The notes: generated from the sequence alone by a model not told the origin. DNA of 64,000 nucleotides from Nannocystis pusilla (GCF_049060185.1 NZ_JBMEQO010000002.1), one strand, 5' to 3'; positions 3,846 to 34,600 are shown, counted from the first letter of the stretch. A program made the numbers and translations.

Positions 3846-4983
3846 TATCTGCACGTCGTAGCTGAACGGCTGCGGCACCCCGTTCACCGCCACCGTGTAG
3901 GTCTTGCCGGCCTCCGAGGTCCAGCCCTGCGGTGTCATGGCGATCGCGCTGGCCGAGCCGAACCCGCCCATGAGCGCCGTCGTCTTGACCGGCCGGTCGA
4001 CCCCGCCCTCGCTGATCGTCACCTGCGCCGCGCCGAGGTCGATCGCATCGCTCTGGATCGTCCAGCCCGTCTCGTCGACGTCGGACCACGGCACCTCGGG
4101 CACGTGGATCGCGTCGATCGGCACCACCCGGGCGGCGGCCAGGCCGTCCACGCCGCGTCGCCGCCGCCCTGCCCGCCGATCACCCACATGCACGAGTTGA
4201 CGGCCGTCGATCCGAGCCCGACCGGCCCGAGCCCGTTCGAGAGGATCCACCGCCGGTGGCCGAAGGTCGTCGCATTGCCGGGGTCGACCATGTAGAGGTC
4301 GACCGCGACCACGCCCGGCGTCGACGAGATGTTGCTGTTCTTCGCCGCCTGCGCCCGTCGGCGCTGTAGCAGTCCCACTGCATCGGCGGGTCGTGCGACA
4401 GCTGCCCGTTGGCGTGCATCATCAGCGCGCACTGCTGCGCCTTGGCATTGAGCCCCGCGTCGTGCCCGACCGCCGGCAGCCCGGCCAGCCAGCGGTACAG
4501 GTTGATCAGCCTGAGCGCGTTGTCGCGGCCCGGCGCGCCCGTGTCGCCCGCCTGACAGCCGGCGACCGCCCCGCTCCATGTCCCTTCGGACATGTCCGCA
4601 CGGTCCGCCGTCCAGCGCGCGCACCTCCGCCGCCGGATCGATCGGCTCGCCGGTGGTGGTGATGTCGCCGGTGGTGGTCGTCGAAGCCGCGCTGGACGTC
4701 CCGCTCCCGGTCGGACCTGGCCCCGAGGACACCTCGTCCGGGCCCGTGGTCGTCGTGCCCGCGACGCTCGTGCTCGTCGGCTCCCCGCGGTCGACGCCTC
4801 GCTGGTGCCCGGCGCGCTCGCATCGCTGGTCCCCGGTCCGGTGCTCGCCGCGCTCGCGCCGGTGCTCGTCGCCTCGCTCGCGGTCTCGGGCATACCGATG
4901 CTCTCGGTCACCTCCGCGACGCCCGAATAGCAGCCGACGACGAGCACGGACATTGATGCGAGGACGACGCGAGAGGGCAGCAT
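3831..4983 (-). CDS. CAP/SCP/PR-1 domain lipoprotein with Ser/Thr-rich linker; at least 3 frameshifts
   Basis: Lipobox signal MLPSRVVLASMSVLVVGC. CAP-domain motifs (…NALRLINLYRWLAGLPAV…, …TTFGHRRWILSNGLGP…) are spread over three overlapping ORF fragments (4180..4983, 4019..4732, 3831..4250). Confidence 0.6.
4576..4606. repeat. GGACATGTCC-family repeat (2 units) inside the linker region of the CAP lipoprotein gene
   Basis: CCATGTCCCTTCGGACATGTCCGCACGG. It lies between the Thr/Ser-rich linker and the CAP domain and coincides with a frame change. Confidence 0.6.
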
Positions 4984-5218
4984 CTCATCTCCGCATACGA
5001 CCTGACCGCCGCCGCAGTCAACCGGCGCGCGCCAGGCGACTCGCGCCCGCTCGTGGGGTCGACGAGCCGCGATGCGATCGCGCGACGTCCTCGCTTCACT
5101 CGATCGCGCTCGCGCTCGCCGCCTGCAGACCTGCCGACTCCGGGAGCGAGACGTCGACCGACGACGCGCACCGCTCCACCGCGCCCATGCGCGCCTGCTT
5201 GCGTCGCGCGCCGCGCCG

Positions 5219-7545
5219 TCAGCCCGGCGGCGCGGCCTTGCGGCTCTCGGCCACGATCCGCACCAGGTCGGCCTCGTCCTCGCACAGCGCCACGATCAGG
5301 TCGCCCGGCACCAGAGTCTCGTCCGGCCGCGGGTTGACGATCAGCCGCCGCCGCAGCTCCGCGTGCGACGTCCCGCCCGCCGGCGCCTTGCCGCCCGGAT
5401 CGGCCGTGCGATACAGCCCCAGCGGCACCGCGCCGCCGCGGCCTTGCACCTCGAGCAGCGCGCGTCGGGCCTTGCGCCACGACTGTCCGATGAGCCAGGT
5501 CGGCGCCGGCGCCGTGTAGACCTCGGCGTTGTCGTCGGCGAACGCCACCAAGCGGTTGAACAGCTCCGCGAACGCGCGATCGCGGCACGCCATCACCAGC
5601 CAGCGGTGCGCCAGCGCCTGGCAGTCGACCGGCACCAGCCAGGCCGCGAACGGCGAGAACACCTCCTCGCGCTCCGCCTCCGACGTCTCGACCAGAGTCA
5701 CCGGCAGCGCCGGCGCAGTGCGGGCGATCTCCACCGACGTCGCCGCCACCCCGAGCGTCCGCGCCCGCTGCCCCCGCCGATCGGGTCGCGCGCGCACGCC
5801 TGGTGCACTGCGCGGGCGATCCGCAGCGGATCGTAGCTCGCCCCCGATCCATCGCCGTCGCCGAGCACGATCACCCGGGCGGCCCGCGGCAGCCGCAGCC
5901 CCGCCAGGTCCTCCGGCACCTCCGGGTTCGAGTGGTGGATCGTCAGCGCCTTGACCCGCGCCAGCTGCAGCCGCACCGCCGCGGCAGCGCGTCGGACACC
6001 ACCACGTGCAGCGGCCGGTGTCGCGTCGGCCCCGGGCTGCGCAGCAGGCGGATCAGCGGCAGCATGTCCTCGCGGAAGTTCAGCACCACCAGGTGCCGGT
6101 TGAGCCGCCGCCACAGCCGCGTCTGCTCCTGCGCGAAGATGTTGGTCAGCGTCGCGGTGAACCACGCCAGAAGGCCGAGCCCGAGGATCGTCGCCGCCGC
6201 CCCGACCAGCCGCGCCGTCGGCGTCTTCAGCGTCTCGGTCGTGAAGTTGCCGGTGGCGAACGTGTTCATCTCCCAGAACGAGTCATTCAGCGTCCTGAGC
6301 CTGGCGTTCGAGTCATGTTCCAAGGACCAGACGATGAACGTCGACAGCGTCACCACGCACGCGAACGCCGCGAACGGCACCAGCGGGTTCGAAGCTGGCT
6401 CTCGATCCCCGCGCCCGGGACTCGCCGCCGCCGCAGCGCCCGGCGCACCAGGTACAGCACCACCCCCAGCGCCGCCGCGAACGCCCGCCCTGCAGCCACG
6501 CCTGCCGGCGCTCGCTGGTCTCGTGCAGCTCGGCCACCGGGTGCAGCGGGATCGGCTCGCGCTCGGCGAACCCGCGCCACTCCACGCGGACCTTGAGGCT
6601 CGCGTACTGCTTGTCGCGCGCCAGCTTCTTGAGCCCCTGGACCATCGCCTCGACCGCCAGCCGGCGGTCGGCCAGAAGGCCTCGTCTTCCACCCGCTCGC
6701 GCGGCGTCGCCACCAGCACCACCGAGCTCACGCACACCGTCGGCATGCTGTACTCGAGGCCCGGATAGGTCCCGGTCTCGATCGGGCAGATCCGGTAATA
6801 CGGGTAGCCGTCGATCAGGCGGTTCAGCACCGCCTCGGGCAGCGGGTTCAGGGTCGCCAGGCCGGACGCCAGCACGTCGCGGATCTCCGTGTGCCCGGGC
6901 TCGGTGGTCCGCAGCATCGTCAGCAGCTCGCGCCGGCTCATCGCCGCCAGCGCCTCGTCGGCAGTGCCCGTGAACAGCGGCAGCTGCTCCGCGGTGTGAC
7001 CGGCCGCGCCGAGGATCACCTTGGCCGTCTCGTAGCTGCCCGAGCCGTCCTTGCCCATGAACAGCGGCTCGCGGCCGATCTCGGCGAAGTCGTCGAGGCG
7101 CACCGGCCGGCGCACCAGCACGTGGACCGCCGCGTCGGACACCGCCGCGATCACCCGCAGCTCGGCCTTGTCGGCCTCCTCGGGCGACAGCTTGCACATC
7201 CACCCGCCCTTCGGGATCGCGCTGTCGCCCGCGTCCGCGTCGGCCTGCCCGGCCTTGAACGCCTCCGCCGCCACGTCGTACTGCACCAGCGCCGCGTCGA
7301 GCTCGCCCGACAGCAGCTTGTGCACGTTCTCGCACGAGCCCTTGGTCGACTCCGGCGCGATCGTCACCGCCCCTCGCCCTGGACCGCCTCGGCCAGCGCG
7401 TGCGCGGTCACGTCGAACCCGCCCTTCTTGGCCCCCGAGCCGAAGCGGACCACGATCGCCTCGCCCGCCCGCGCCGCACCTGTCTGCAGGAACATGCCCA
7501 AAGCACAGGCGCGATCGACCATGTCCTCGAGAACATGCCCTTACG
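5219..7545 (-). CDS. TAXI-family solute-binding domain fused to an ion-channel pore and RCK_N/RCK_C cytoplasmic domains (putative ligand-gated channel); several frameshifts
   Basis: TAXI motifs (…FGSGAKKGGFDVTAHALAEAV…, TIAPESTKGSCENVHKLLSGELDAALVQYDVAAEAF, …GYPYYRICPIETGTYPGL…). TM/pore segment (…PFAAFACVVTLSTFIVWSLEH…FATGNFTTETLKTP…LGLGLLAWFTATL…). RCK_N-like (HLVVLNFREDMLPLIRLL…HVVVSD, …RVIVLGDGDGSG…). RCK_C (…LIVNPRPDETLVPGDLIVALCEDEADLVRI…, ORF 5219..5797). The pieces lie in different frames. The N-terminus is not resolved. Confidence 0.5.
7477..7545. repeat. GGACATGTCC-family repeat cluster (about 4 units)
   Basis: CACCTGTCTGCAGGAACATGCCCAAAGCACAGG…CCATGTCCTCGAGAACATGCCC. It overlaps the putative 5' end of the TAXI-channel gene. 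Confidence 0.65.
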
Positions 7546-7616
7546 GCCAGCCCACTGCGCCCGCGACGAGCTCGCTCCGGCCGCGCCGTCCTGCCGCCGC
7601 TCCTTGCGCCCGCGTC

Positions 7617-8405
7617 TCACTCGGCCTCCCCGGTCAGCACCAGCAGCGCGCTCGCGTCGCGCAGCGGGCGGGAGGGCGGCGGGCTCAGCAGCATCGCGTC
7701 CGGCCCGCCTTCGCCGGGCGCGAACAGCCCGATCAGCGTCACCGGGCGGCCGCGGCGGTCGACCTCCACGTTCAGGCAGGCCTCGCGGAACGTCCCCGCG
7801 CGCAGCTCCGGCGGCACCGGCCAGGTCTCGACGCGCAGGCGCCCGCCGAGCAGCGCCAGCATGAAGCGGAACGCCCCGAGGTCGACGCACGCGTGGGCCA
7901 GCAGCGCCGCGCGGAGAAAGCCCGGGTAGAAGATCGTCGCCACCCCCAGGCCCTCGAACTCGTGGGTCGCCTCCGGGTCCTCGACCGCCACCACCACGTG
8001 CGGCGGCTTGCCCTTGCAGGCGCGCAGGATCGCCGTGCACACCAGGCGCGAGAACGCGTCGGTTTCGCCGTGGCCGCGCAGCGGCAGCACGATGATCGCG
8101 TCGGCCGCCGGCAGCCCGGCGGTGTCGGCGAAGAAGCGCGCCAGCGCCTCGACCCCGCCGCTCGCCGATCCCTGCCAGTACTTTTGGACATGTCCCGCGG
8201 GCAACTCGGCCAGCGCCGCCGCGACCGCCTCCACCGGCGCCGGCCCGATCAGCGTCAGCTCCGGCGCCGGCTCGGCCGCCGCGATCGCCCGCACCAGCCC
8301 GAGCGCCTCCGGCGTCCAGTGGATCACCACCCAGCGCGGCCTCGTCGGCCCCGGGAGCCCCGTTGCGAAGTCCTCCGCCGCCGCAGTGTCCCCGCGCTCC
8401 GTCAC
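7617..8405 (-). CDS. CASTOR/POLLUX-type RCK (TrkA-N-like) domain protein
   Basis: …AADAIIVLPLRGHGETDAFSRLVCTAILRA…HVVVAVEDPEATHEF…ACVDLGAFRFMLALLGG… aligns with the RCK region of CASTOR/DMI1-family channels. Stop at 7617. Start is tentatively GTG at 8405. Confidence 0.5.
   Translation of the reverse strand: MTERGDTAAAEDFATGLPGPTRPRWVVIHWTPEALGLVRAIAAAEPAPELTLIGPAPVEAVAAALAELPAGHVQKYWQGSASGGVEALARFFADTAGLPAADAIIVLPLRGHGETDAFSRLVCTAILRACKGKPPHVVVAVEDPEATHEFEGLGVATIFYPGFLRAALLAHACVDLGAFRFMLALLGGRLRVETWPVPPELRAGTFREACLNVEVDRRGRPVTLIGLFAPGEGGPDAMLLSPPPSRPLRDASALLVLTGEAE
8184..8198. repeat. Single GGACATGTCC unit inside the CASTOR-like CDS
   Basis: TTGGACATGTCCCGC encodes …AGHVQKYW… in frame. Confidence 0.5.
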
Positions 8406-8763
8406 GCCGCCGCAGCGTCCGCCCCCGCGCGCCCACCTGTCAAGCCGCCTCGCCGCCTTTCGTCGCCGACACGATCGCTCGCAACGGCGCCGATGAACGC
8501 GGCCGATTGTCCAGCCCGACGATCCAGCCTCACGCCGAACGCATGCGCTGCCGTTCGCCGCGCGCGTCCTTCGAGTGCCCTCGCTCATCGCTCCGCATGC
8601 GACTCGCCGCGGATGAACGCGGCCTCATGCTCTTGCCGCGCGCGAGGCTCCGACGCGACGATCGGTCGTGACACGCTCGCGTCGGCGCAGGGGCCCGCTC
8701 CTCCACGCGCGCTCGCATCGGCGCGGTTGCCCGGACTCGCCGCGCGCGTGATAGCGTCGGCGC

Positions 8764-9554
8764 CTGCGCTCCACCGAGATCCTCGCGCTGGCGCTCATCG
8801 CGCTGGTCTCCTTCGGCCTCAGCTACATCGGCGCCACCGTCGGGCTCGTGCTCGGTCAGCTGCGGGTGGCCCTCCTCGTCTACGCCCTCGGCAGCCCCGT
8901 CGCCGGGGCCGCCACCAGCCTCGCCATCTCCACCGCCGGCACCCTCACCGGCACCTGGCGCCACGCCCGCGACGGCCGCGTCAGCCTGTGGCTGCTGGCC
9001 AGCGTCGGCGCCCCCTCGGCCGTCGCCGCCTTCGCCACCGCGCGCTGGGCCGGCAGCGTCGACGCCCGCCTCCTCAAGGCCGCCATCGCCGGCGTCCTCC
9101 TGCTCACCGGCGCCGCCATGCTGCGCCGCCGGCCCGAGCCCACCGGTCCTTCCGAACATGTCCCTTCGCGCACCTTCGCCGTCCTCGCCGAGGTCGTCGT
9201 CGGCGCCGTCCTCGGCGCGATCTCGAGCCTCGTCGGCCTCCTCCTCGGCAGCCTGCGCCTGCCGGCCATGATCCGCTACGCCCGCGTCCCCCGCCCGTGG
9301 CCGTCGGCACCAACATGGCGATCGGCGCAGTCACCGGGCTGTCGGCCGGCGTCGCCACCTTCCTCGAGGGACAGGTCGACCTCACCGCCTTCGCGGTCGT
9401 CACCCCGCTCACCCTGCTCGGCGCCAACCTCGGCGCCCGCCGCACCGGCGACCTCGACCCCGACAGCCTGCGCCGCTGGATCGCCTGGATCCTGCTCCTG
9501 TCCGCCGCCCTGATGCTCGGCGAACTCGGCCTCGAGCTGCGCCGCACCGCCTGA
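8764..9554 (+). CDS. TauE/SafE (DUF81) family membrane exporter; 1 frameshift near 9295
   Basis: 4+4 TM halves with Gly-rich TauE motifs (…LVSFGLSYIGATVGLVLGQ…; …MAIGAVTGLSAGVATFL…LLGANLGARRTG…). Stop at 9554. Start uncertain. Confidence 0.65.
9148..9175. repeat. Single GAACATGTCC unit in the central loop codons of TauE
   Basis: CCTTCCGAACATGTCCCTTCGCGCACC encodes …GPSEHVPSRT… in the inter-half loop. Confidence 0.55.
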
Positions 9555-9723
9555 CCGGCGGCTCTCGTCGCCGGGCCTGCGCGACGACTCGGCCGCGAGC
9601 TCCACCGGCTCACCCAATCAGCCGCTCGCAGCGCCTGGCCCCACGCGACGATTCGGCCGCGGGCTCCACTCCCGGCTGGACCGGCCGCTTTCGTCGCGCG
9701 GCCCCGCGCGCTACCTTTCGCTC

Positions 9724-11615
9724 GTGTCCGAGCGCGACCGCTTCCTCGCCTTCGCCGCCCGGGCCGTGCCCGTCGCGTTCGGCGCCCGGCCGGCGCCCGG
9801 CGAGCTCGCCGCCCACTGGCGGGCCGCGACCCAGGCGATCGGCGCCCGCCTCGTCCTCGCCTGCGCGCGCGAGCGCCTCGTCGAATTCGACCTTCAGGAC
9901 ATGTCCCTTCGCACATGTTCCTTGAGCCTCCCGCTGCGACGGCGCCGGGCCTTCGAGCTGCACGCCGCCGACCTCGACTGCGCCGACCTCCCCGACCTCC
10001 CCGACCTGCTCCCACGCCTCCTGCCCGCGCTCGCCCCCGCCGCCCGCGCCCGGATCGCGCGCGAGCTCGCCGACAGCCGCTGGAACCTCGCCCTCGCCCG
10101 CCTCGCCGCCGACCTGCGCCATCGGACATGCTCTGAAGGCCAGCCTTGGCCTGCCCCGCTCGACCCCGAGAACCTGGTCGTCGACGGTCACCCGTGGCAC
10201 CCGATGAGCAAGACCCGGCTCGGCCTGCGCGCCTGGGAGAACCTGCGCCACGGCCCCGACCTCCTGGCCCAGGCAGCGGTCCACGCCGTCGACGTCGCCG
10301 CCGAACACGCCCAGCTGGCCGAGCCGGCCCTCTACGCCGACCTCGCGCGCGCCCTGTTCCCGGCCCCGCCGCCTGGCCTGGTCCGCCTGCCCGTCCACGC
10401 CCTTCAGCTACGCCGCCTCCCGCGCCTGCTCGGCCCGCTGTGGGGCCGCGAGGTCCGCCCCGCCGGCCTGCCCCCGCTCCACGCGCGGGCCCTGCTCAGC
10501 CTGCGCACCGTCGCCCTCGCCGCGCCCGCGCTGCACCTCAAGCTCGCCGTCGACATCCACACCACCAGCGCGCGGCGCCAGGTCTCGCCCGCCTCGGTCC
10601 ACAACGGCCCGGCGATCGCCGCCCTCCTGGCCGCGATCCAGGCCGCCGATCCGCAGACCCGCCGCGGCCTGCAGATCCAGCCCGACCTCGCCGCCGCCGG
10701 CCTGCACCTCGCCACGGCCCCGCCGCCGGCCAGCTCGGCGTCGTCCTTCGCCCCGATCCGCTCCCCTCGCCCGACAGCTCCACGCCGACCTCGCCGCACC
10801 CGCCGACCCGTCCCGCGCGACGTCGACCGCCCCGGACTCGCCCGCCGGCACACCTGCCTCTTCCGACCTGTCCTCCGAGACATTACCCTCACGACATGCC
10901 CCCTGGGACCTGTCCCGCGCGACATATTCATTCAATCATGTCCGATCGCGCACCCCGCAGCTCGTCGTCTGCGCCGCCCTCGGCGAGCGCCGGCCCGGCG
11001 GCGACCTCCTGTTGCGCGAGCTCGCCGCCGACTACCCCGGCGATCCGCGCGCGCGTCTCGCGGCCTTCTTCCACGACTACCTCGACCTCCTCGTCCCCGC
11101 GGCCCTGCGCCTGCTCACCGCCCACGGCGTCGCCCTCGAGGCGCACCTGCAAAACACCCTCCTCGTCCACGCCGGGCGCCCTGCGGCTTCGTCGTCCGCG
11201 ACCTCGGCGGAGTGCGGCTCCACCGCGGGCGGCTGGCCGCGGCCGGCCATGCCCCCGCGCTCGCCCCCGACTCCTTCACCTTGACCTCCGACCTCGCCGA
11301 GGCTCAGGGCAAGCTGCTGCACACCCTCGTGCACGCCCACCTCGCGGCTGTGATCGGTTGGGTCGACGACGCCGGCGGCCCCGACCCCGACGTCCTGTGG
11401 CCCGCGGTGCGACGGATCTGCCAGCGCGAGTGGGATCGCTGGGCCGCCGATCCGGCGCTCGCGCGCGCGTGCGCCGACGATCGCGCGTTCTTCTTCGCGG
11501 CCACCTGTCGCAGCAAGGCGCTGCTGCGCATGCGCATCGACGAACGCGTCAGCGATTACGCCTATACCGAGGTCGCCAACGCGCTCGCCGAGGGGTACTC
11601 TTCCCCGCCGCATGA
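9724..11615 (+). CDS. IucA/IucC-family NIS siderophore synthetase with C-terminal FhuF-like domain; frameshifted
   Basis: …[17 protein letters not shown]…, …[29 protein letters not shown]…, …[16 protein letters not shown]…[11 protein letters not shown]… lie in three frames. The stop overlaps the downstream ATG (ATGA). Repeat units sit inside it at 9891..9925, 10124..10135 and 10866..10945. Confidence 0.7.
9891..9925. repeat. GGACATGTCC-family repeat (2 units) inside the IucA/IucC N-terminal codons
   Basis: CCTTCAGGACATGTCCCTTCGCACATGTTCC encodes …[11 protein letters not shown]…. Confidence 0.55.
10866..10945. repeat. GGACATGTCC-family repeat cluster (about 5 units) in the middle of the IucA/IucC gene
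   Basis: GACCTGTCCTCCGAGACATTACCCTCACGACATGCCCCCTGGGACCTGTCCCGCGCGACATATTCATTCAATCATGTCCGATCGCG. It coincides with a reading-frame switch. Confidence 0.65.
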
Positions 11616-12540: not shown

Positions 12541-12578
12541 AGGACATGTCCTTTAGACCCTGTCCCCGGAGACATTGA
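12541..12578. repeat. GGACATGTCC-family repeat immediately upstream of the nadE ATG
   Basis: AGGACATGTCCTTTAGACCCTGTCCCCGGAGACATTGA-ATG. It contains a GGAG that could serve as SD. Confidence 0.7.
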
Positions 12579-14556
12579 ATGCACCTCGTCCGCGTCGCCG
12601 CCGCCGCCCTCAACCAGACGCCGCTCGACTGGGACGGCAACCAGGCCCGGATCGTCGAGGCGATCCGCCTGGCCCGCCGCGAGGGCGTCGCCGTCCTGTG
12701 CCTGCCCGAGCTGTGCATCCCCGGCTACGGCTGCGAGGACGCGTTCTTCGGCCGCGGCACGATCCTCGAGTCGTGGCGGATCTTGCAGGAGCTGCTGCCC
12801 GAGACGAAGGGCATGGTCGTCGCGCTCGGCCTGCCGATCATGCACCGCGCCGCCAACTACAACGCGGTCTGCCTGGTCGCCGACGGCCACATCGTCGGCC
12901 TGGTCGGCAAGCGCTTCCTCGCCGGCGACGGCATTCACTACGAGCCGCGGTGGTTCAAGGGCTGGCCGGCCGGCAAGTTCGTGCAGTGGGAGCACGACGG
13001 CCACAGCTACCCGCTGGGCGACCAGATCTTCGAGGTCGGCGGCCTGCGGATCGGCTTCGAGATCTGCGAGGACGCGTGGGTCCCGAACCGCCCCGGCGTC
13101 GAGCTCGCCAGCCAGGGCGTCGACGTGATCTGCAACCCCAGCGCCAGCCACTTCGCGTTCGGCAAGCACGAGGTGCGCAAGCAGATCGTCCTCAACGCCT
13201 CACGCAGCTTCCGCGCCACCTACGTCTACTCCAACTTCATCGGCAACGAGGCCGGCCGCGTCATCTACGACGGCGAGTGCATGATCGCCTCATCCGGCCA
13301 CCTGATCGCCGAGGGCCGCGGCTCGGCTACAAAGACGTCTACGTCACCAGCGCCGTGGTCGACGTCGACCTCGCGCGCATGGTCCACGCGCGCACGACCT
13401 ACGCGCCCACGGTCGACGACAATGTCCGCCGGATCACCCGGTTCGACATGCAGCTGCCGACCGCCGACCTGCCGCCGCACGCCATCGCCCCCGACGACGC
13501 GCTGCGCAACGACAAGCGCGAGGAGTTCTCGCGCGCCGTCGCTCTCGGCCTGTTCGACTACCTGCGCAAGAGCCGGTCGCGCGGCTTCGTCGTCTCGCTC
13601 AGCGGCGGCGCCGACTCGGCCGCGGTCGCCTACCTCGTCCACCTCATGGTCACTCTGGCCACGCAGGAGCTCGGCGTCGCGGCCACCTGCGCCCGCCTCG
13701 GCCTGCCCGAGGGCTCGTGCACCACCCCGCGGGCGATCGTGCGGGCGCTCCTGACTTGCGTCTACCAGGCGACCGCCAACAGCTCCGACACCACCCGCAA
13801 CGCCGCCCGCGCGGTCGCCGAGGCCGTCGGCGCCGAGTTCCTCGAGTTCGACGTCGACCCGCTCGTGCGCGCCTACGTGCGCACGGTCGAGGGCGCGATC
13901 GGCCGCGAGCTCGGCTGGAAGAGCGACGACATCGCCCTGCAGAACATCCAGGCCCGCGCCCGCGCCCCGGCGTGTGGCTGCTGGCCAACCTGCGCGGCGC
14001 CCTCCTGCTGGCCACCAGCAACCGCAGCGAGGCCGCCGTCGGCTACGCCACCATGGACGGCGACACCTGCGGCGGCCTGTCGCCGATCGCCGGCATCGAC
14101 AAGGCCTTCCTGCGCCAGTGGCTGCGGTGGGTCGAGCTCGAGGGCCCCGCCGGCGTCGGCCCCACGCCGGCCCTGAGCGCCGTCAACGTCCAGGCCCCGA
14201 CCGCCGAGTTGCGGCCCGCCGGGGCCAAACAGACCGACGAGGACGACCTGATGCCGTACCCGATCCTCGACGTCATCGAGCGCGCCGCCATCCGCGACAA
14301 GCTCGCGCCGAAAGAGGTCTACCGGGTCCTCGCCAGCCGCTTCCCCGAGCACGGCCGCGACCAGCTGCTGCTGTGGATCAAGCGCTTCTTCCGCCTGTGG
14401 AGCCAGAACCAATGGAAGCGCGAGCGCTACGCCCCGAGCTTCCACCTCGACGACGAGAACCTCGACCCCAAGACGTGGTGCCGCTTCCCGATCCTCTCGG
14501 GCGGCTTCGTGCGCGAGCTCGCCGAGCTCGACAACGTCGTGCCGAAGAGCGGCTGA
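12579..14556 (+). CDS. nadE: Glutamine-dependent NAD+ synthetase (nitrilase + NAD synthase domains); about 2 frameshifts
   Basis: N-terminal CN-hydrolase (…LCLPELCIPGYGCEDAF…, …GFEICEDAWVPNRP…). C-terminal NAD synthase (…GFVVSLSGGADSAAVAYLV…). Pieces in ORFs 12579.., 12575.., 13717... Confidence 0.85.
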
Positions 14557-14565
14557 GCCTGGCTA

Positions 14566-14598
14566 GGGGCATGTCCCCGAGGACATCCCGCAGGACGC
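14566..14598. repeat. GGACATGTCC-family repeat (2 to 3 units) downstream of nadE
   Basis: GGCTAGGGGCATGTCCCCGAGGACATCCCGCAGGAC. Confidence 0.65.
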
Positions 14599-19711: not shown

Positions 19712-20832
<1,121 letters not shown>

Positions 20833-20848
20833 AGCCTGCTGTCGCTTC

Positions 20849-20903
20849 GTACCTGTCCCCGCGTACCTGTCCCCGAGTACCTGTCCCCGACAACCTGCCC
20901 CGA
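20849..20903. repeat. 14-bp tandem repeat x4 (TACCTGTCCCCGNG) between gcvT and gcvH
   Basis: TACCTGTCCCCGCG / TACCTGTCCCCGAG / TACCTGTCCCCGAC / AACCTGCCCCGAAG. It ends 9 nt before the gcvH ATG. Confidence 0.8.
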
Positions 20904-20912
20904 AGTTTCACC

Positions 20913-21302: not shown

Positions 21303-22285
21303 CCGCCGTGGCCGCCTGGCTCGCGCTCGTCGCTGTGTTCGGCCTCGCGCCGCCCGCGACCTCGACGCCGGCCCCGCAGGGCCCGGCGCCCGCGAGCCCG
21401 TCGGCCAGCGCCACCCCGGAGGGCCCGAGGCCGGCGCCCCCGAGCCCGGCCATCCCCGCCGCGCCCGCGCCCGAGAACATCGAGGCCGAGGGCAACGAGC
21501 GCGCCGAGCCTCCGGGCGGGGTGCCGAAGATCCCCTCGCCGCGGTCCCTGCGGACTTACGGGACAGGTGCTTTCAAACCTGTCTCGGAGGACACCCTCGG
21601 CTCGCTCGGCCTCAAGCGCCAGCGCGACGGCACCATGATGTACGTCGACGCCGGCAAGCGGTTCACCGCCGTGTTCAACGCCGACGGCACCGTGCGCTTC
21701 GGCGACCGCTGGAACCGCGACCAGAACGGCAACAAGGTCAAGGGCTCGCGCGCCGCCCTGCGCCAGATCAACATGGCCGGCCTCGGCGTCACGGGCCCGT
21801 CGGAGTGGCTGGTCAAGCTGCAGGACCTGCTCGGCGGCCCCGAGACCGACGCCGCCGCCAAGCGCGAGTTCCTCAACCGCACGCGCGAGCTCCGGACGCA
21901 GATGGCGATCGAGTTCACCCTGCGGACCTTGACCTACCGCCTCGGCACGCTCGAGCGCGAGCTGTTCGAGCTGTGGAACGCCGGCGACGACCCGGCCAAG
22001 AAGCGCGAGCTGCTGTTTCAGCGCTGGGACGAGTGCGACGAGGCTTATCGCGTCGAGTTCGCCGGCGAGATCCCCGAAGAGGCCATGTCGGAGATCGATC
22101 GCACCCGCGCCGACGTCGCCGAGCAAGCGCGCCGGATCATCGAGACGTTCGTGCGCCGCCAGCTGCCGCGGTCCGGCCCCAACGGCTTCAGCAAGCGCGA
22201 GCTCGCCGACATGAACGGCCGCCGCACCAGCCGGCAAGAGTTCCGCCCCTACGACATCCACGCGACCCAGAGGACCGCCCAGTGA
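21299..22285 (+). CDS. Hypothetical secreted protein (signal peptide, Pro/Ala-rich linker, charged helical C-terminal domain)
   Basis: GTG start overlaps the gcvH stop (GTGA). Signal peptide [20 protein letters not shown]. Carries an internal palindrome at 21543..21590. Confidence 0.55.
21543..21590. repeat. GGACAGGT variant inverted repeat (GGGACAGGTG-N7-ACCTGTCTC) inside the CDS
   Basis: CGGTCCCTGCGGACTTACGGGACAGGTGCTTTCAAACCTGTCTCGGAGG. Confidence 0.55.
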
Positions 22286-23451: not shown

Positions 23452-23452
23452 C

Positions 23453-26881: not shown

Positions 26882-26901
26882 ATCGACGCTGGCTTATACA
26901 T

Positions 26902-26940
26902 GTCTGCGAGGACATGTCCTAATGACATGTCCTCGCAGAC
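26902..26940. repeat. Near-perfect 18-bp-stem hairpin built from two inverted GGACATGTCC units
   Basis: GTCTGCGAGGACATGTCC-TAA-TGACATGTCCTCGCAGAC. It lies 20 bp after the CCP stop. Confidence 0.8.
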
Positions 26941-27058
26941 ATTCGGCGTCTCGCCCCGGCCGACCGCGCGCGGCTGCTCGCCCAAGCGCACGGCGCGCGG
27001 TCCGCTCCGACCGGCGCCGGCGGGTCGCGGTCTGCGCTAGGATGGATCCGGTCCGACG

Positions 27059-28143
27059 ATGCCGTCCGCGCTCCTCGCCGCAGTGCTCGCGTTCCAGGTG
27101 CCCGAGCCCCGTCTGCCGGCGCGATCGAGTGGCAGGCGCCGGCGGGCTGCCCCGATCGCCGCGCGCTGGCCGGGGCGATCGCCGGCCGCCTCGGCCGCGA
27201 GCCCGCCGCCGACGAGCTCTCCTGGTCGGCCGGGTCGAGCGGGACGGCGCCTCGCAGTACCACCTCGACCTGCGCCTCACCGTCGGCGGCCACGCCCAGA
27301 CCCGGCGCCTCAGCGCTCGGCGCTGCGCCGCGCTGGTCGACGCCGCCGCGCTCCTGGCCGCCCTCGCGCTCGACCCCACCGCCGCCGAGCGCGGTGGGCC
27401 GACCGACCGGATCGCGCCGGAGGTCGAGTCCACGCCGCCCGAGCCCGAGCCGCCTCCCGGCCCCGAGCCGGCCCCTGGCCCCGAACCCGCCCCACCCGTC
27501 GCCCTCGCCTCCGAGGCCGTCGTCGACGCCCCTGCCGCGCCGCTCCAACCCCCGAACCCGCGCCCGAGCCCGCCGTCGTCACCGCCGACGAGCCGCTCGC
27601 CCCGGCCCCGCCGCCGCGCAGGCGAGGTCCCGGCGCGCTGCTCCGCCTCTCGGCCGGCTTCGAGGTCGGCACCGTCCCCGCGCCGACCGCCGCGCTCGAG
27701 CTCGTCGCCGGCGTCCTGTGGCGGCGCGCTCGCCTCGAGTTCCACGGCGTCCACCTCGTCCCGCAGACCGAGGCGCGCCTGCCCAACGAGGTCCGCGTCT
27801 ACCTGCTCGGCGGCGGCGCCCGCGGCTGCGCTCGCCTGTCGCGCGGCCGCTTCGAGTTCCCTCTGTGCGGCGGCGCCGAGCTCGGCGGCCTGCGGGGCCA
27901 GGGTCGCGGCCCGGCGCGCGCGCGGCCACCGGCCTGTGGGCGGCGGTGCTCGTCTCGGCCGGCGCCACCTGGCGGTTTCACCGGCTGCTCGGCCTCAGCC
28001 TGGCCGCCCAGGGCCTCGTGCGCCTGGCCGCCCCGAGCTTCGACCTGGAGGACACCCCGGAGCCGGTCAACCTGTTCACCAGCGCGCCTGCGAGCCTGCG
28101 CCTGCTTCTCGGCCTCGAAGTGCGCCTCGGAGACCCGCGGTGA
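27059..28143 (+). CDS. Conserved hypothetical protein immediately upstream of the ECF sigma factor; frameshifted
   Basis: …IEWQAPAGCPDRRALAGAIAGRLGREPAADEL / [53 protein letters not shown]… and a C-terminal part ending …LGLEVRLGDPR* at 28143. Confidence 0.45.
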
Positions 28144-28181
28144 CGGAAACCGTCTCGGCCGGGGACAGCCCCCACAGCCCC

Positions 28182-28761
28182 ATGCTGCTCGCCACCGACC
28201 GCGAAGCGCGCTTCGCGCCATCTACGACCGAGAGTTCCACTTCGTGTGGTCGGCCGCGAAGTACTTCGGCGTCCCCGCGGCCGCCCGCGACGACGTGGTC
28301 CAGGACGTCTTCCTCACCGCCTACCGCCGCTTCGACCAGGTCCACTACCAGGTCTCGGCGCGCGCCTGGCTGTACGGCGTCACCCGCCGCGTCGCCTCGC
28401 ACTGGCACCGCGGCGTCGCCCGCCGGACCCGCCGGATCGCCGCCCTCGGCGACCTCACCGGCCACGTCGGCGAGGCCCTGCAGGAGCGCCACGACGCCGC
28501 CCGCCTGCTCGAGCGCCTGCTCGCCGGCCTGCCTCGCGGGACCCGCGAGGTGTGGAGCTGACCGAGCTGCTCGGCATGAGCGGCCCCGAGATCGCCGCCG
28601 AGCTCGAGCTGCCGCTCAACACCGTCTACTCGCGGCTCCGCCTCGCGCGCGCCCGCCTGCTCGAGCTGGCCGCCAGCCCCGAGCTGCTGGCCTCCGAGGT
28701 CGCCGAAAGCCGCCGCCGCGAGGCGCCCCGGCCGACGCCGCCTCGCGCACCTGGGCCGTGA
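28182..28761 (+). CDS. ECF (sigma-70 family) RNA polymerase sigma factor; about 2 frameshifts
   Basis: Region 2 (…IYDREFHFVWSAAKYFGVPAAARDDVVQDVFLTAYRRFDQ…). Region 4 (…ELLGMSGPEIAAELELPLNTVYSRLRLARARL…). Confidence 0.75.
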
Positions 28762-29665
28762 TGGTCCCGCTGTTCGGCCACGGCAAGCTCGCCACCGTGG
28801 CCGCCGCCTGGACCACCGCGCGCGCCGGCGTCATGACCACCCTCGTCGTCGCCGGTGCCACCACCGTCGTCGCGGTCGCCCCCGCCAGGCCCCGGGCCGG
28901 GCCACCGCCGCGCACGTCGAGGACCTGTCCGCAAAGCCAGCTGGCTCTCGTTCCAGCGGTGACATGCCTCGAGAGACTGCCGCGCCATCGCCCGCCGACA
29001 TGTCCCGAGAGACAGCCTCTCTTCCGCCCGACGACATGTCCCGAGAGACAGCCTCTCTCTCGCATTGTCATGTCTCGAGAGACCGCCTCGCCTCCGTCCG
29101 CCGACCTGTCTCGAAAGACAGCCCCGCCCCAGCCCGCCGGCACGTCGCGAGAAACAGCCGCGCCCCGCCCGACGCTGCCGGCCCGCAGCGGCCGCCCGCC
29201 CCGCCTCCCCGTTCTCGTTCTCCCACCTCCGCGCGCGGGTCTCTGCCCTCTGGACCCGCATCCCCTGTCGCCGGGCCCCGCGGCCGACCTGTCCCCGAGG
29301 ACAGCCTCTCCCGCGCCCGTCACCCGCCCTGCCTACGAGCAGCTGCTGTCCCGAGAGACATCCGCGCGCGCCCCGCCCGCGACGACCTCGCCCTCGAGGT
29401 CGGCCTCCTCGACCGCGCCCGCGCCCGCCTCGACGCCCGCGACCCGGCAGGCGCCGCCCAGCTCCTCGACGCCCACGCGCGCCAGTTCCCGCGCGGCGCC
29501 CTCGTCGACGCCCGCGAGGCTGCCGCTGTCGAGCTCCTGTGCCTGCAAGGCCGTCCCACCGACGCCGCGACCGCCGCCCAGCGCCTGGCCGCGCGCCTGC
29601 CCGACTCGGTGCTCGCCCGCCGCTTCGAGCGCTTCGTCTGCCCCGACGACGACGAGCCGCGCTGA
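28761..29665 (+). CDS. Membrane-anchored putative anti-sigma factor; the linker is occupied by a 36-bp tandem-repeat array
   Basis: ATG overlaps the sigma stop (TGATG). TM helix …GVMTTLVVAGATTVVAVAP…. C-terminal domain …DLALEVGLLDRARARLDARDPAGAAQLLDAHARQFPRGALVDAREAAAVELLCLQGRPTDA… in another frame. Confidence 0.5.
28921..29370. repeat. 36-bp tandem-repeat array (about 5 good units at 28961..29143, then degenerate units to about 29370)
   Basis: Units: GACATGCCTCGAGAGACTGCCGCGCCATCGCCCGCC / GACATGTCCCGAGAGACAGCCTCTCTTCCGCCCGAC / GACATGTCCCGAGAGACAGCCTCTCTCTCGCATTGT / CATGTCTCGAGAGACCGCCTCGCCTCCGTCCGCC / GACCTGTCTCGAAAGACAGCCCCGCCCCAGCC…. Further copies at 29287 (GACCTGTCCCCGAGGACAGCCTCTCC) and 29346. 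Confidence 0.85.
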
Positions 29666-29865
29666 GCTCCGAACCCGCAGAGATCTGCGCCGCAAGATCG
29701 CCGCAGACCGACGCGCTAGCCCGCTGGTCTGCGCGCTCCAGCTCCCGAGCCCCTCGCGGCGAAGCCGCGGAACACGCCGCGAGCACCCCGCCGCGCGTGA
29801 CCCTTGCGAGCGCGTACGAGTTTGCTGTCCGTGCCCTCACAGCCGCACCTCGAGCGCAGCCGAAC

Positions 29866-29888
29866 TCACCTGTCCTTCAGGACATCTT
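29866..29888. repeat. GGACA/TGTCC inverted unit (ACCTGTCC-TTCA-GGACATC)
   Basis: Intergenic. Confidence 0.55.
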
Positions 29889-30107
29889 TGCAATTCTCAA
29901 AGATCGCCCTGCCGGCCGGGGCCGGTGGCGGCCAGCTGTCCGCAGCGCCCGAGGTCGCCCGCAGGCCGCCGCGCCGCGCTCGCCGGACGGTCGCGCCTCT
30001 TGCGCTCACCGCTCCAAACGCGCTCCCAAGGCCCCGACCGTCGCTTTCGCCGGCGTGCGAGCCAGCGGCGGCTTGCCCTGCCCGGGGCCCCGCTCAATGC
30101 CTCGAGC

Positions 30108-30510
30108 ATGACGGCACCGACGAACCCGGAGCGTGACCGCGAGGTCGACGCGTTCTTGCACCTCCTCGGGCGCGCGCTGGTGGAAGGCGACGCCCTCACG
30201 GTGGCGACGCTGTACGAGACCCCGCCTTCGTGCTGGCGGACTCCGGGCGCAGGCCGTCGCCCGGCGCGAGGAGATCGAGCGCTTCTTCGCCGGCGCGCGG
30301 GCGCAGTACCTCGAGCGCGGCGTGACGATGACGCGCCCGGAGGTCGAGTCGCGCGAGTGGGTCGGCGACCGCGTGGTCCTCGTGCGCGTGGCCTGGCCCT
30401 ACATCGACCGCGACGGCCGCGAGGTCGGCCTCGAGCGCTCGACCTACGCCCTCCGCCGCGACGACTCGGGGGCCCTGCGGATCCGCGTCGTCATGCCCCA
30501 CCGCGACTGA
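30108..30510 (+). CDS. NTF2-like (SnoaL/DUF4440-like) small protein; 1 frameshift
   Basis: …EEIERFFAGARAQYLERGVTMTRPEVESREWVGDRVVLVRVAWPYIDRDGREVG…. Confidence 0.5.
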
Positions 30511-30529
30511 CCTGTCCCCTGGGACATCC
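30509..30529. repeat. GGACA/TGTCC inverted unit (ACCTGTCC-CCT-GGGACATCC)
   Basis: Lies between the convergent genes 30510 and 30544. Confidence 0.55.
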
Positions 30530-30543
30530 TCGCGTCTCCGCGT

Positions 30544-31031
30544 TCACTCGCTGGGCTCGTCGGGCGTGAACTTTCCCCACGAATAATCAGGGTGGTCCAC
30601 CGCGATCATGGTCCACGCCTCCACCTCGGTGTCCTCGTCGACCTCGAACAGCAGGCGGGCGCCGCCCGGATCGCCAGCATGCGACGGCCGTCTCGGTCGC
30701 GTCCGGTGGCGAAGGCCACCTGCTCCGCGGTGAGTCGCGCGACGACGGCGTCGTAGTCGGGCGCCTCCGGGCCGCCGAGGATCCACGCGTCGACCTCGCG
30801 CTCCCCGTCGGCTTCGAGCTGGAGCAGATAATCGTGATACAGCGTGTAGACGAGGTCCCCGTCGAAGAACAGCTCGAAGTTGCCGTAGCGCCAGACCTCG
30901 AGGCCGCCGCCGCTGGCCATGCGCTCGCTGGGTGGGCCGAGCCGCTCGAGGACGGTGGCCCGGTCGTCGCCGGGTCGCACCCCGCCGAGCTGACCTTCGA
31001 CCACGAGGCTGCGGATCGAGAACGCGATCAT
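30544..31031 (-). CDS. Hypothetical protein; 1 frameshift
   Basis: Two coding-like fragments (30606..31031 and 30544..31050). Confidence 0.35.
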
Positions 31032-31078
31032 CGTCCGTCGACGCTACCACGGAGCCGCGAGCGCGCCGCGACCGGCCT

Positions 31079-31330
31079 TCAGAACCGCAGCGCGCAGCCG
31101 CCTGGATCGCACTGCACCCGCTTCCGCTTGAGCCGCATCGCCGTGATCGACGCCGTGAGGAACAGCGCGCTCGAGATCAGCAGCAGCGACACGGTCACTC
31201 CCAGGCCCTGACGGGTCAGGCGCAGCTCGGCCTCCTCGCGCGGGCTCACCGGCTCGCGCATCGTCACCGCCGCGACCACCCTCCGGCCGCGAACCCGAGC
31301 GCCGGCACCCCGAACGCCGCGAGCCACCTG
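31079..31330 (-). CDS. Hypothetical small membrane protein
   Basis: C-terminal TM segment …GVTVSLLLISSALFLTASITAM…. Weak support. Confidence 0.25.
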   Translation of the reverse strand, partial: QVARGVRGAGARVRGRRVVAAVTMREPVSPREEAELRLTRQGLGVTVSLLLISSALFLTASITAMRLKRKRVQCDPGGCALRF

Positions 31331-31564
31331 GATCTTCGCCGCCATCTCCTCGTCGGTGGGCGTCGGCGGTGACGCGGCGACATCGGGCCGCGGCGGGGTG
31401 GGCGGCGGGCACGGCTCCCCTGCAGGCACGCAGCCGCCCGCGCACGTCGTCGCCCCCTCCGACAGGACTCCGGCGGCTGCAGCAGCAAAGCGACCGAGAC
31501 CAGCGCGGCGACGACCATGCCGCCCAGAGTACTCTATCGGCGGCCGCCCGTCACCGGTCCCTCG

Positions 31565-31630
31565 GAGCATGCCCTCACGGCCATGTCCTGACAGACATGT
31601 CCCCGACGACATGTCGCCGGGGACATCCAG
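31565..31630. repeat. GGACATGTCC-family repeat cluster (about 5 units, 12 to 14-bp period)
   Basis: GAGCATGCCCTCACGGCCATGTCCTGACAGACATGTCCCCGACGACATGTCGCCGGGGACATCC. Intergenic. Confidence 0.75.
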
Positions 31631-31636
31631 ACCGCC

Positions 31637-34600
31637 TCACACCGCGTCGCTGACGCTGGCGAAGTGGAAGTCCTTCGCCACCAGCGGCGGCACCACCGCG
31701 ACCATCCCGTCGCCGGCCGTGCGCTCCGGCTTGCCGATCGCCACCAGGTTCTTCAGCAGCGCCGCCGGGCTCTCGTTGTAGCGCATGTTCTTGACCGGCC
31801 GCGCGATCTTCCCCTGCTCGATGAGGAACGTGCCGTCGCGGGTCAGCCCGGTCGCCAGGATCTGCCGCGGGTCGAGCATGCGGTTGTAGAAGAAGCGCGT
31901 CACCAGCACCCCGCGCTCGACCCCGCGGACCAGCTCGAGCAGGTCCTTGCCCTCGGCCGGGTCGGCGGGCGCGAGGAAGATCGAGCGCGGCCCCGGCAGC
32001 GCCGGCTTGCTCTGCTTGTGGGCCCAGAACCGGCTGTACGCCAGCGCCTTCAGCATCCCCCGATCGATCCACGTCGTCGCCGGCAGCGGCAGCCCATCGC
32101 CTGCGAACGGGATCGACGGCCAGCGCGGGTCGGCCGGGTCGGAGCGCAGCGTCACCCGCGGGTCGAACAGCGCCTCGCCGATCGCGTTGCCGCCCGGGCG
32201 GCTGAAGAAGCTGCGGCCCTCGTCGGCCGCGCGGGCCTGCAGCGCCGACACCAGGAAGCCGAGCAGGTCGGCCACCGCCTGCGCCTCGAGCACCACGGTG
32301 TACGCCCCCGGCGCCAGCGCGTCCGCGCCCTGGCTCGACATCGTCGCCTTGTCGGCCGCCCGCCGCGCCAGCGCCGGCGCGTCGAGCTCGGCCAGGCGGT
32401 GCGACGCGCCGCCGGCCCAGCCGCTGCCCTTGCCGTCGGGTGTGCGCATCGTCGTCGTCAGCGACGCCTCGGTCGCCGCGTGGAGCGCGAACAGACCTGT
32501 CCGATTGGCCAGGACAGTCACCCCGTCCTCGTGCTCGACGATCCCCGACGCCACCAGCTTGGCCTCGCGCGCCACCTTCAGCACCCGCGCCACCACCTCG
32601 GTGCGCCCCTCGGGTCCGACCTCCGCCGTCTTCGCGTCACGGGCCGCCACCTTCGCGTACTGCTGCGGCCCCAGCGGCGGCTCGTGCTCCGGGTCCTTCG
32701 GCGCCAGCTTGGCCAGCGCCTCCGCCTCGCGCACCAGCGCCTGCAGCGACGCCGCGTCGCGCCCGGTGCCGGACACCGTCGCCACCCGCCCGTCCTTGGC
32801 CGCAGTCACCGACACCTCGAAGCGCGCCGCCTCACCGGACGTCGTCGGCGCGCCGGCGGCGAACCGCAGGTACGCCGTGCGCCGCGCGGTCACTCGCAGG
32901 CTCACGTCCTCGAAGCTCGCGGCGGACAGCGCCGACTTGATCAGCGCCCGCGCCTCGGCCGGGCTCAAGGAGACTGCGCGCTCACTTGTCACCCCGGTGT
33001 TGAGGATGTTGACGACGAAGCGCGCCGGCGGGCACCCGTGGCTGACCGCGTTGCTCTGCGACGGCTCGCCCTTGCCGTCGCTCATGCTGCCGCCGAGGCG
33101 GTACGTGTCTGTCCCTCCGAGCATGTCACACGAGCTCCAGAATTCGACCGTGTTGGCCTGATACGCCACGTCTCGCAGCGGCCGCGTCAGCCGCCCGTGC
33201 TTGATCTCCCAGAAGAACTGGCCCGAGAACTGGAAGTTGTAGCGCTGCTGGTCGATCGACCAGCTGCCGCGGCCCGTGATCAGCACCCCGTCGTCGGTCG
33301 CCGAGATCAGGTCCTCCGTCGTGTAGCCCTCGCTGCCCGGCTGCAGGCTCACGTTCGGCATGCGCTGGAACGGCACGCTCGCGTAGCTGTCGGCGTAGCT
33401 GCAGCCCCGGCTCGCCGGCTCGCCGGCCGCCGCCGCCAGGTCGCGCGTCGTCTGCCAGCCGACGAACGTCCCCTTCTTCACCAGGTCCCAGCGCTGCGAC
33501 GCCACCGCCTCGTCGTCCCACGCGGTCGTCGCCAGACCGCCGGGCTGCGTGCGGTCGGCCGCGAGGTTCACGATCTCGCTGCCGATCTTGACCTTGCCCG
33601 CCTTGTCGGGCCCGAGGAAGCTCGTGCCGGCGTAGTTCGCCTCGTAGCCGAGCGCCCGGTCGAGCTCCGTCGAGTGGCCGATGCTCTCGTGGATCGTCAG
33701 CCACAGGTTCGACGGCGCCAGGATCGCGTGCTTCTTGCCCGGCACCGCCGGCGCCGCGTGCAACTTCTGCAGCGCCTCCTCGGCGATCTTCGGCGCGCTG
33801 CCGACCAGGTCGGCCGCGGTCACGTGCTCCCAGCCGGCCAGCATCGGCGCCACCTCGTGGTCGCGCCCCGCGAAGCGACCGCGCCGGCGATCGATCGCCG
33901 TCGCGGTCAGCCCCGGAATCACGCGGAAGAAGATCTGGTGGACCCGCGAGCCCTCGCTCGTCATCACCAGCTTCTCCTCGCGCACGCACGCCACGTTCGC
34001 GTCCACGTGCGCCACCCCGGGCACCGCCAGCGCCGCGCGGGCCGCCGCCAGCAGCAGCTCCGCCTTCTCGGCCGGCGCGATCGAGAACGGGTCGACCTGG
34101 AACGGCGACACCCAGCCGCCCTGCAGCACCGGCGCCGGCGCCAGCGTCACCGGCTGCGGCATCAGCAGCGCGCTCTGGCGGGCCATCGCCACCGCCGCCT
34201 TCGCGATCCCCTCGACCGCCTTCGCGCTGCGCTCCGCCGTCGCCGCGAAGCCCCAGCCGCCGTCCGCGATCACCCGCAGACCGACCCCGTAATCCTCGCT
34301 GCGACCGATCCCGCTCACGTGGTCGTCGCGCACGCCGACCCGCTCGCGGCGCATCAGCACCAGGCGCGCGTCGGCGTAGCTCGCCCCGGCCTTCGTCGCC
34401 GCCTCCAGCGCAGTGCGCAGCAGATGCTCGTCGGCCAGCAAGCGGCTCGCGGCCAGCAGGGCCATGCCCGCGTCTGCGCTCGCGGGCGCCGACTTCGGCG
34501 CCGGGATCCGGCTCGGCGGCGGGCCGGCCCAGGCCGCGCGCGAGCCGTGGACCAGCGCCTCGGCCCCACAGAGCCCCGTGAGCGCGAGGAAGGAGCGGCG

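Follow-up and report, generated by a model that had tools for sequence, protein, structure and literature searches.

Repetitive extragenic palindromic (REP) sequences, together with the bacterial interspersed mosaic elements (BIMEs) and the REP doublets forming hairpins (REPINs), are intergenic, clustered hairpin repeats that often lie after stop codons or between the genes of an operon. REP units are imperfect palindromes of 20–40 nt with a GTAG head and alternating orientation, are extragenic by definition, and are mobilised by REP-associated tyrosine transposases (RAYTs). Mycobacterial interspersed repetitive units/variable-number tandem repeats (MIRU/VNTR) form tandem arrays at many loci, often between operon genes, with a copy number that varies between strains; they are sometimes translated, and their units are non-palindromic and 46–101 bp long. 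Here we describe a family of 14-bp repeats in a 64,000-nt stretch of Nannocystis pusilla DNA (NZ_JBMEQO010000002.1, hereafter the window; 72% GC, with a GC skew that is uniformly negative throughout), which occurs in arrays between genes and also within genes.

Two further systems are relevant to repeats found in coding sequences. Rickettsia palindromic elements (RPEs) lie between genes and also in frame inside unrelated genes; such in-gene copies are translated, and the fold of the protein accommodates them (PMC10969869). HIP1 (GCGATCGC), in cyanobacteria, is an over-represented short palindrome that is found both inside open reading frames (ORFs) and in the spaces separating them and is conserved between related genomes, with its function unresolved (PMC5861425; PMC4390886).

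The Nannocystis family lacks at least one defining feature of each of these systems, RPEs, HIP1, REP/BIME and MIRUs alike, and in kind we rate it as interspersed palindromic repeats that can be translated. In the account that we favour, with a probability of about 60%, the family lies mostly between genes, where it would have a REP/BIME-like role, some copies are translated in permissive segments of genes, and the numerous reading-frame breaks in the window are a separate matter. The family is abundant in Nannocystis and in related uncultured Nannocystaceae, and we found no bacterial description of the motif in the searchable literature, in which the matches were papers on p53 response elements and myxobacterial genome papers unrelated to it; similarly, a scan of the whole window against Rfam at gathering thresholds matched no family.

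The repeat family and its arrays at gene ends

The core of the family, GGACATGTCC, is present in the window in 12 exact copies (0.04 expected) and in 30 copies with at most one mismatch (1.7 expected). An iterated position weight matrix (PWM) scan, read at thresholds of 7, 11 and 14 bits, found 70 units of at least 11 bits in the window, compared to 4.5 in Markov-1 nulls. Neighbouring copies occur at exactly −14 and +14 in the flanks of GGACATGTCC sites, which gives the family a 14-bp period, and Tandem Repeats Finder (TRF) reports period-14 arrays at 3792, 20849, 31582, 46771 and 50792. The 14-bp unit is made of a 10-bp quasi-palindromic core and a variable 4-nt spacer and is iterated head to tail; the core is best written C(A/C)TG(T/C)CC.

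For comparison we used five syntenic Nannocystis loci, retrieved via one protein of the region, that have 82–95% nucleotide identity over positions 1–18 kb of the window: N. pusilla Na p29 (L001), N. bainbridge (L002), N. punicea (L003), N. radixulma (L004) and N. sp. RBIL2 (L005). Two more loci with called genes cover positions 12–40 kb, one from N. bainbridge (L006) and one from a Logan assembly that is 93–96% identical (L007). The repeat family is common to Nannocystis and is also present in related metagenome contigs (loci L009–L099). Unrelated metagenome contigs contributed 75 perfect two-unit arrays that could be tested, nine of which have an open, coding-like frame to either side and encode peptides such as GHVPxDMS and DMSRGTCP. 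An exact two-unit array is also found in a predicted viral contig of 59 kb and 65–67% GC (L008, IMG/VR UViG_3300005675_000065).

At least about three quarters of the arrays lie between genes, mostly no more than ~40 nt downstream of a stop codon, and ~10–25% of the units are intragenic. When we classified 17 arrays in loci with clean gene calls, 10 started within 40 nt after a stop codon, four were in coding sequence (CDS), one overlapped the 5' end of a gene, and the others were otherwise intergenic. Between 39 and 64 kb of the window, every array is in a segment that codon bias marks as non-coding. Three of the arrays at gene ends are as follows.

3778–3833, no strand assigned: reference intergenic array of 4–5 units with 14-bp period; folding z −2.7 on the plus and −3.8 on the minus strand.
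12542–12569, plus strand: array over the stop codon of a phosphoribosyl pyrophosphate (PRPP)-synthetase-like gene, whose last codons are GGA CAT GTC CTT TAG; the next unit is intergenic.
20849–20904, plus strand: intergenic gcvT–gcvH array of a non-palindromic CCTG variant (GTACCTGTCCCCGA, four copies); folding z −0.3.

The 3778–3833 array lies between convergent gene ends, with the stop codon of a plus-strand gene at 3775 and that of the CAP gene at ~3853, and N. punicea (L003) has an enlarged copy of it. The family is like MIRU/VNTR in having scattered tandem arrays that vary in copy number and are sometimes translated, but its unit differs in being 14 bp long with a palindromic core. Stop codons are contained in some units (TGACCTGTCC at 30505; GGACATGTCCTAA at 26910 and 59665), and since stops lie inside or directly after units, arrays often begin at the very end of an ORF.

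Intergenic arrays fold better than shuffled sequences, with z from −2.7 to −4.7, and the hairpin consists of adjacent units that form a 10-bp stem with a 4-nt loop. No excess folding was seen for the CCTG-type gcvT–gcvH array or for the intragenic arrays (z about −0.3 to −0.4). The gcvT–gcvH spacer array has only the CCTG variant in all three genomes compared (6875–6930 in L006); because this array is without hairpin potential, the palindrome is evidently not essential to the maintenance of arrays. On the account that we favour, palindromic units that are adjacent between genes could pair in the hairpin described, and the family would most likely be REP/BIME-like, either marking the 3' ends of transcripts or binding a protein. 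The family shares with REP/BIME its clustering, its position near stops and, in the arrays that fold, the pairing of adjacent units in the manner of REPIN arms, but its units are 14 bp long, are arranged head to tail, and are intragenic in a minority of cases (4 of the 17 arrays classified above are in clean CDS). We ruled out a strict intrinsic (Rho-independent) terminator, since the U-tract is absent: the sequences read show no T-run after the arrays, although the hairpins are present.

A 36-bp tandem repeat at 46567–46768 (5.8 copies, consensus CGTCGCCGCCCTCGCTCGCGCCGCCCCACGTCAGTT) occupies the whole interval from one to the other of two GGACATGTCC-type arrays, at 46446–46487 and 46769–46838. 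Some segments near arrays differ between strains. The two genes at 26970–29904 are bounded by arrays and are absent from L007, and ~1 kb at 30508–31625, with a minus-strand ORF (30606–31043), lies inside what L007 has as one continuous array (13345–13414); N. bainbridge has a different gene (Hexapep) at the latter position. Between TauE and IucA/IucC, L001 and L003 have ~2.4 kb of extra DNA, none of which is present in the window (9560–9728), L002, L004 or L005. We considered arrays as breakpoints of strain-specific segments, and two cases fit, but arrays lie at gene ends anyway, and these cases are thus no evidence of a mechanism.

Units inside coding sequences

The sequence-only reading, made from the window before any comparison, had placed repeat units inside several genes. 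We judged the coding status of in-gene units on ORFs that are intact in sister Nannocystis genomes and found units within coding sequence at seven sites.

4574–4601, minus strand: two-unit array in a CAP-domain lipoprotein gene (~3853–4983, minus strand), encoding ..RTDMSEGTWS..
7476–7544, minus strand: five-unit array at the 5' end of a TAXI (NMT1_3) gene; core identity 0.93, spacer identity 0.60, folding z −0.4.
8186–8195, minus strand: single exact unit in the hypothetical protein P0241, GGA CAT GTC read as Gly-His-Val; no indels.
9154–9163, plus strand: single unit GAACATGTCC in the central loop of a TauE/SafE gene, read as Glu-His-Val.
9897–9924, plus strand: two-unit array in the N-terminal region of an IucA/IucC gene (~9724–11610), read as D-M-S and then T-C-S.
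10864–10947, plus strand: six-unit array between the IucA_IucC and FhuF domains of the same gene, an apparently translated, length-variable insertion.
28921–29310, plus strand: unit-bearing 36-bp in-frame tandem repeats (TRF period 36, 5.9 copies) in the post-transmembrane linker of an ECF-sigma-like protein (~28140–29665).

At three other sites the match is weak and looks like ordinary or degenerate coding sequence.

10124–10133, plus strand: degenerate unit GGACATGCTC encoding RTCS in IucA/IucC; RTC[SA] is kept in homologues down to ~64% identity.
21561–21598, plus strand: three degenerate unit-like 14-mers in a hypothetical protein; 2–3 mismatches, no indels.
32493–32502, minus strand: AGACCTGTCC (2 mismatches) encoding RTGL in the conserved PmbA domain; ordinary coding sequence.

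The intact ORFs of the relatives indicate that some of the arrays are translated. The core is free of stop codons in all six frames, and stops are rare at 72% GC; together, these properties would allow arrays in genes to be read through. Successive units shift the frame by 2, as the period of 14 is 12 + 2, and consecutive units are consequently read as D-M-S, T-C-(S/P) and (G/E)-H-V. The frame is kept by three units (42 bp) or by derived modules of 27 or 36 bp.

The interdomain array of IucA/IucC is, on alignment to homologues, the only site shown to be an insertion. It lies between the Pfam domains IucA_IucC (149–350) and FhuF (445–606), and the inserted segment is found only in the Nannocystis clade, being absent from Enhygromyxa and other Nannocystaceae homologues. 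Full-length proteins with an insert of 14–55 aa make up eight aligned sequences, namely L005, four Nannocystis genome proteins and three metagenome proteins. The reading frame of the array differs between L001 and L005, and the ORF is intact in both. In an AlphaFold2 model with a mean predicted local distance difference test score (pLDDT) of 91, the only internal segment with pLDDT <50 is 376–408, compared to array-coded residues 386–411, and the insertion is thus predicted to be disordered; as RNA, the array shows no excess folding (z −0.3). The array at 9897–9924 differs in that its 12-residue stretch aligns without gaps to QGMVLRAGPVRL in homologues, a replacement with no length change and no insertion, and these residues (62–73 of P0004) are in beta-strands, with pLDDT ~95, in the AlphaFold model. 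The unit at 10124 is most likely ordinary conserved coding sequence, given its retention in homologues.

In the ECF-sigma-like protein, the linker repeats of the window (DMSRETASLPPD) encode peptides of the type D[ML]SRETA, and the 433-aa orthologue of L006 has 27-bp repeats encoding RDLSAETAA; the linker region is 415 nt in the window versus 175 nt in L006. By this comparison the sigma-linker array is a length-variable in-frame expansion. The CAP array is located between an S/T/G/P-rich linker and the CAP domain and is present in six of six species, with a core identity of 0.99. The L005 copy of the CAP gene is one ORF of 385 aa, with a lipobox (LVVGC), a Pfam CAP domain at 158–259 and a lipoprotein signal peptide upstream of the array. 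In five species, the TAXI gene has an in-frame ATG and M(F/S)xRTW..PVLLGMFLQTGAA(R/Q)A, then GE, ahead of the TAXI (NMT1_3) domain, and the array most likely encodes a signal peptide, as its conserved residues suggest. Because the in-frame ATG and the signal-peptide-like sequence extend across the array in all five, a 5' untranslated region is unlikely at this site. The earlier suggestion that true starts lie downstream and that the clusters are 5' untranslated regions is not supported: the N-terminal region of IucA aligns across genera, the CAP signal peptide is upstream, and the TAXI N-terminus is conserved.

The protein with the unit at 8186 is the NCBI N. pusilla protein P0241 (262 aa), which is 100% identical to a window ORF; its GHV occurs only in the Nannocystis clade, in place of the R-G-x of more distant homologues, with no length change. 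Exact-protein look-ups with P0241 and with the aldo-keto reductase of the window gave no match. At 9154, no insertion is evident, in a loop that is hypervariable in the TauE/SafE family. At 21561–21598, only one unit exceeds the 7-bit scan threshold, at 10.2 bits, and this weak match could be a relic or chance.

It was possible that the in-gene units are simply coding sequence that resembles the motif by chance. This fits the three sites at 10124 (RTCS in distant homologues), 21561 and 32493 (2–3 mismatches in a conserved protein context). We compared the unit content of 53 clean CDS (52.7 kb, from L005, L006 and L007) with that of synonymous-codon shuffles and found 9 units of at least 14 bits versus 1.4, and 31 of at least 11 bits versus 9.7, a 3- to 6-fold excess. 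Moreover, exact or near-exact units occur at 14-bp spacing within CDS, the IucA insertion is composed of units, and the rare codons GGA, CAT, ACA and TGT within units are conserved in six species. Chance resemblance is therefore refuted as a general account, which we regard as very unlikely, and stands for the three weak sites only.

Larger arrays persist where the protein tolerates them, as is shown for the disordered interdomain loop of IucA, the sigma linker and the CAP junction, and the TAXI signal peptide may be another such place. The idea that the element enters genes and is tolerated in loops and linkers thus holds in part: it describes the IucA insertion, the sigma linker and the CAP linker–domain junction, but not 9897–9924 or 8186, and orthologue alignments, which show the 14–55 aa of IucA as an insertion, run through those two sites without a change in length. 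Apart from the interdomain array of IucA and the sigma-linker array, the confirmed in-gene units substitute residues while protein length stays the same, and they do so with very rare codons. Arrays in genes may arise through local tandem expansion, through insertion, or through substitutions that convert near-matches, and the copies would persist because the core is free of stops and the host segments are permissive.

The likeness to RPEs extends to some of these sites but not every one: the IucA interdomain array is in frame, between Pfam domains and at a loop with pLDDT <50, and the sigma linker has its repeats of 27 or 36 bp. RPEs, however, are ~100–150 bp long and encode one conserved peptide in one frame, whereas the Nannocystis unit is 14 bp long, tandem, and read in three frames and on either strand; unlike RPEs, the units are often present without a change in protein length. 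The host also differs, since RPEs reside in a reduced intracellular genome and the present family in a free-living myxobacterium of 12–13 Mb. The Nannocystis sites provide a clean, comparable series of translated repeat DNA, with cases in a disordered loop and in a linker, in a signal peptide and even in beta-strands, and thus a natural system in which to study how interspersed repeats become protein sequence.

The RPEs are also the precedent (PMC10969869) for a different origin, in which the arrays are a mobile element of the REP/REPIN or miniature inverted-repeat transposable element (MITE) type that transposes into genes and survives only in permissive sites. Three observations fit such an element: compared to homologues free of the repeat, the interdomain array of IucA is a true insertion; array copy number varies between species; and arrays border segments that some strains have and others lack. 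Nevertheless, we consider it unlikely: we saw neither target-site duplications nor terminal inverted repeats, the elements have no fixed length, orthologous arrays keep their position across species that are 84–98% identical, and several in-gene units entail no length change. No clean pair of filled and empty array sites was seen, with no systematic search made, and the GTAG signature of RAYT-mobilised REPs is absent from the unit consensus, with no search made for RAYT genes or other transposases.

Reading-frame breaks

In the sequence-only reading, frame changes had been located within or next to several clusters. We took a census of frame breaks in 30.9 kb of the window aligned to the CDS of relatives, and found 59 frame-shifting indels in 21 genes, ~1 per 520 nt of CDS. 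These indels are not concentrated at units: 1 is within 15 nt of a unit versus 1.15 expected, 4 are within 30 nt versus 2.06 (P = 0.15), and 5 are within 60 nt versus 4.2. Three of the cited breaks correspond to the following deletions.

4615–4625, no strand assigned: two-nt deletion in a GC/CA dinucleotide run, which breaks the CAP frame 14–24 nt from the array.
10707–11182, no strand assigned: three one-base C-run deletions (~10711, ~10760 and 11182), with an extra base at each in L001 and L005.
~28883, no strand assigned: one base lost where a C run ends, which is 38 nt upstream of the sigma linker's first unit; the frame change here was earlier placed at 28921.

The apparent frame change around the 10866 cluster results from the three C-run deletions, and only the 1-nt deletion at 7501–7502, in the TAXI array, is a cited break inside an array. 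The ECF-sigma-like gene changes frame four times in the window, and same-strand frame changes recur along the whole window in a frame plot of codon bias. Of the 59 indels, 40 are one-base deletions, which affect C or G in 35 cases and fall in runs of at least 3 in 24. Compared to L005 and L001, a single base is missing from the window at 22 shared positions in 17.5 kb, with a like pattern relative to L007, and the frame-breaking indels are absent from three to seven independent sister assemblies. On this comparison, the frame breaks are almost certainly consensus errors of this assembly that are unrelated to the repeats, and the earlier association of breaks with clusters arose because indel errors are so numerous in the window.

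We also weighed the proposal that the frame changes next to repeat clusters are caused by the clusters, via slippage of the polymerase or of the assembly or via programmed frameshifting. One indel (7501) is inside an array and another (4615–4625) is 14–24 nt away, and several compensating 1-nt indels distinguish the 10864–10947 array from that of L001. The proposal nonetheless appears most unlikely, given the chance-level distances and the scattered, homopolymer-type character of the deletions, which are not enriched at repeats. Programmed frameshifting was ruled out, since orthologues in L001–L007 have uninterrupted ORFs through every array and no recoding is needed.

The same errors alter gene structures. 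TldD and PmbA (31637–34762, minus strand) form one 1041-aa ORF in the window but two overlapping genes in L006 and L007, a fusion that is due to one-base deletions at 32969 and 32996. Similarly, the loss of a single G at 20483 divides gcvT (19786–20792) over two frames, and one frame without a stop between gcvT and gcvH yields a spurious 597-aa GCV_T + GCV_H ORF. Apparent pseudogenes, fusions such as TldD–PmbA and frame changes in the window should thus not be taken as biology, and a rate of ~1 frame-breaking indel per 500 nt of coding sequence probably applies to the whole assembly.

Possible selection on the DNA sequence

The main rival to the account that we favour is that the units are under sequence-specific selection at the DNA level everywhere, as sites for a nucleoid or regulatory protein or as targets of an orphan methyltransferase, as has been proposed for HIP1, and that copies in genes are maintained for this reason. 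The family is like HIP1 in its over-representation, which is seen in the core counts given above and in ACATGT, with 32 occurrences in the window versus ~3 expected (~10-fold, and no avoidance), and in having sites within and between ORFs that are conserved between genomes. HIP1 sites, however, are dispersed singletons, up to ~1 per gene, whereas the Nannocystis units are mainly in arrays of 14-bp period near stops, and the Nannocystis motif, unlike HIP1, is directional and has a frequent non-palindromic variant.

Several observations are those expected from selection of this kind. The same core is present in all arrays, and core positions are 0.84–0.99 identical across 5–7 relatives, CDS sites included, while the spacers drift (0.57–0.68). 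Exact units are kept in genes despite codons that are very rare in the genome (GGA makes up 1.9% of the codons for Gly, ACA 2.5% of those for Thr, CAT 8.3% of those for His and TGT 12% of those for Cys), replacements toward the motif occur in structured regions, and the non-palindromic CCTG arrays retain the TGTCC half. Units are also directional on the C-rich plus strand, regardless of gene orientation: CATGCCC occurs 25 times versus 3 for GGGCATG, and CCTGTCC 25 times versus 4 for GGACAGG in the window, where composition alone predicts ~2.2 to 1. Over 37 metagenome loci, unit orientation tracks local GC skew (Spearman −0.51, P = 0.0013).

This polarity could come from a replication-linked polarity or from mutational skew, and a purely mutational strand asymmetry would remove one argument for selection. 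Furthermore, arrays are unevenly distributed, being mostly at 3' gene ends, and in-gene arrays are more degenerate than intergenic ones. We therefore hold selection on the DNA sequence to be possible but doubtful as the general explanation. A broader form of the idea, which we put forward equally tentatively by analogy with HIP1 and with replication-oriented polar motifs, is that the 14-bp unit may be a directional, selected genome-architecture motif of Nannocystaceae, with the arrays at gene ends serving as binding platforms rather than passive hairpins. If this is true, a DNA-level function would be strong enough to persist inside structured coding sequence in spite of codon preference and of the amino-acid replacements that it entails. 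The family could also show whether a short DNA motif is selectable at the DNA level within genes, which is the question raised by HIP1.

Some observations weigh against the account that we favour, in which a REP/BIME-like family is occasionally translated and the frame breaks are separate. A single core in all arrays that is conserved across species is more in keeping with a protein or methylase that recognises the sequence than with a role that is structural only, with the reservation that this conservation is possibly inflated, since aligners prefer to match similar cores. The CCTG variant is common, non-palindromic and unfolded, and a hairpin is consequently not a universal constraint. In-place units in structured protein (IucA residues 62–73 and the RCK GHV) are not easily explained as by-products that the protein tolerates. 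With respect to the frame breaks, the change at 7501 is not a simple homopolymer error, and the deletion at 4615–4625, which is common to the window and the independent assembly of N. pusilla Na p29 (L001) and is not found in four other species, may be real.

Two further tandem repeats in the window, of 66 and 67 bp, at 54493–54660 (2.6 copies) and 56997–57186 (2.9 copies), are non-coding and apparently unrelated to the 14-bp family.

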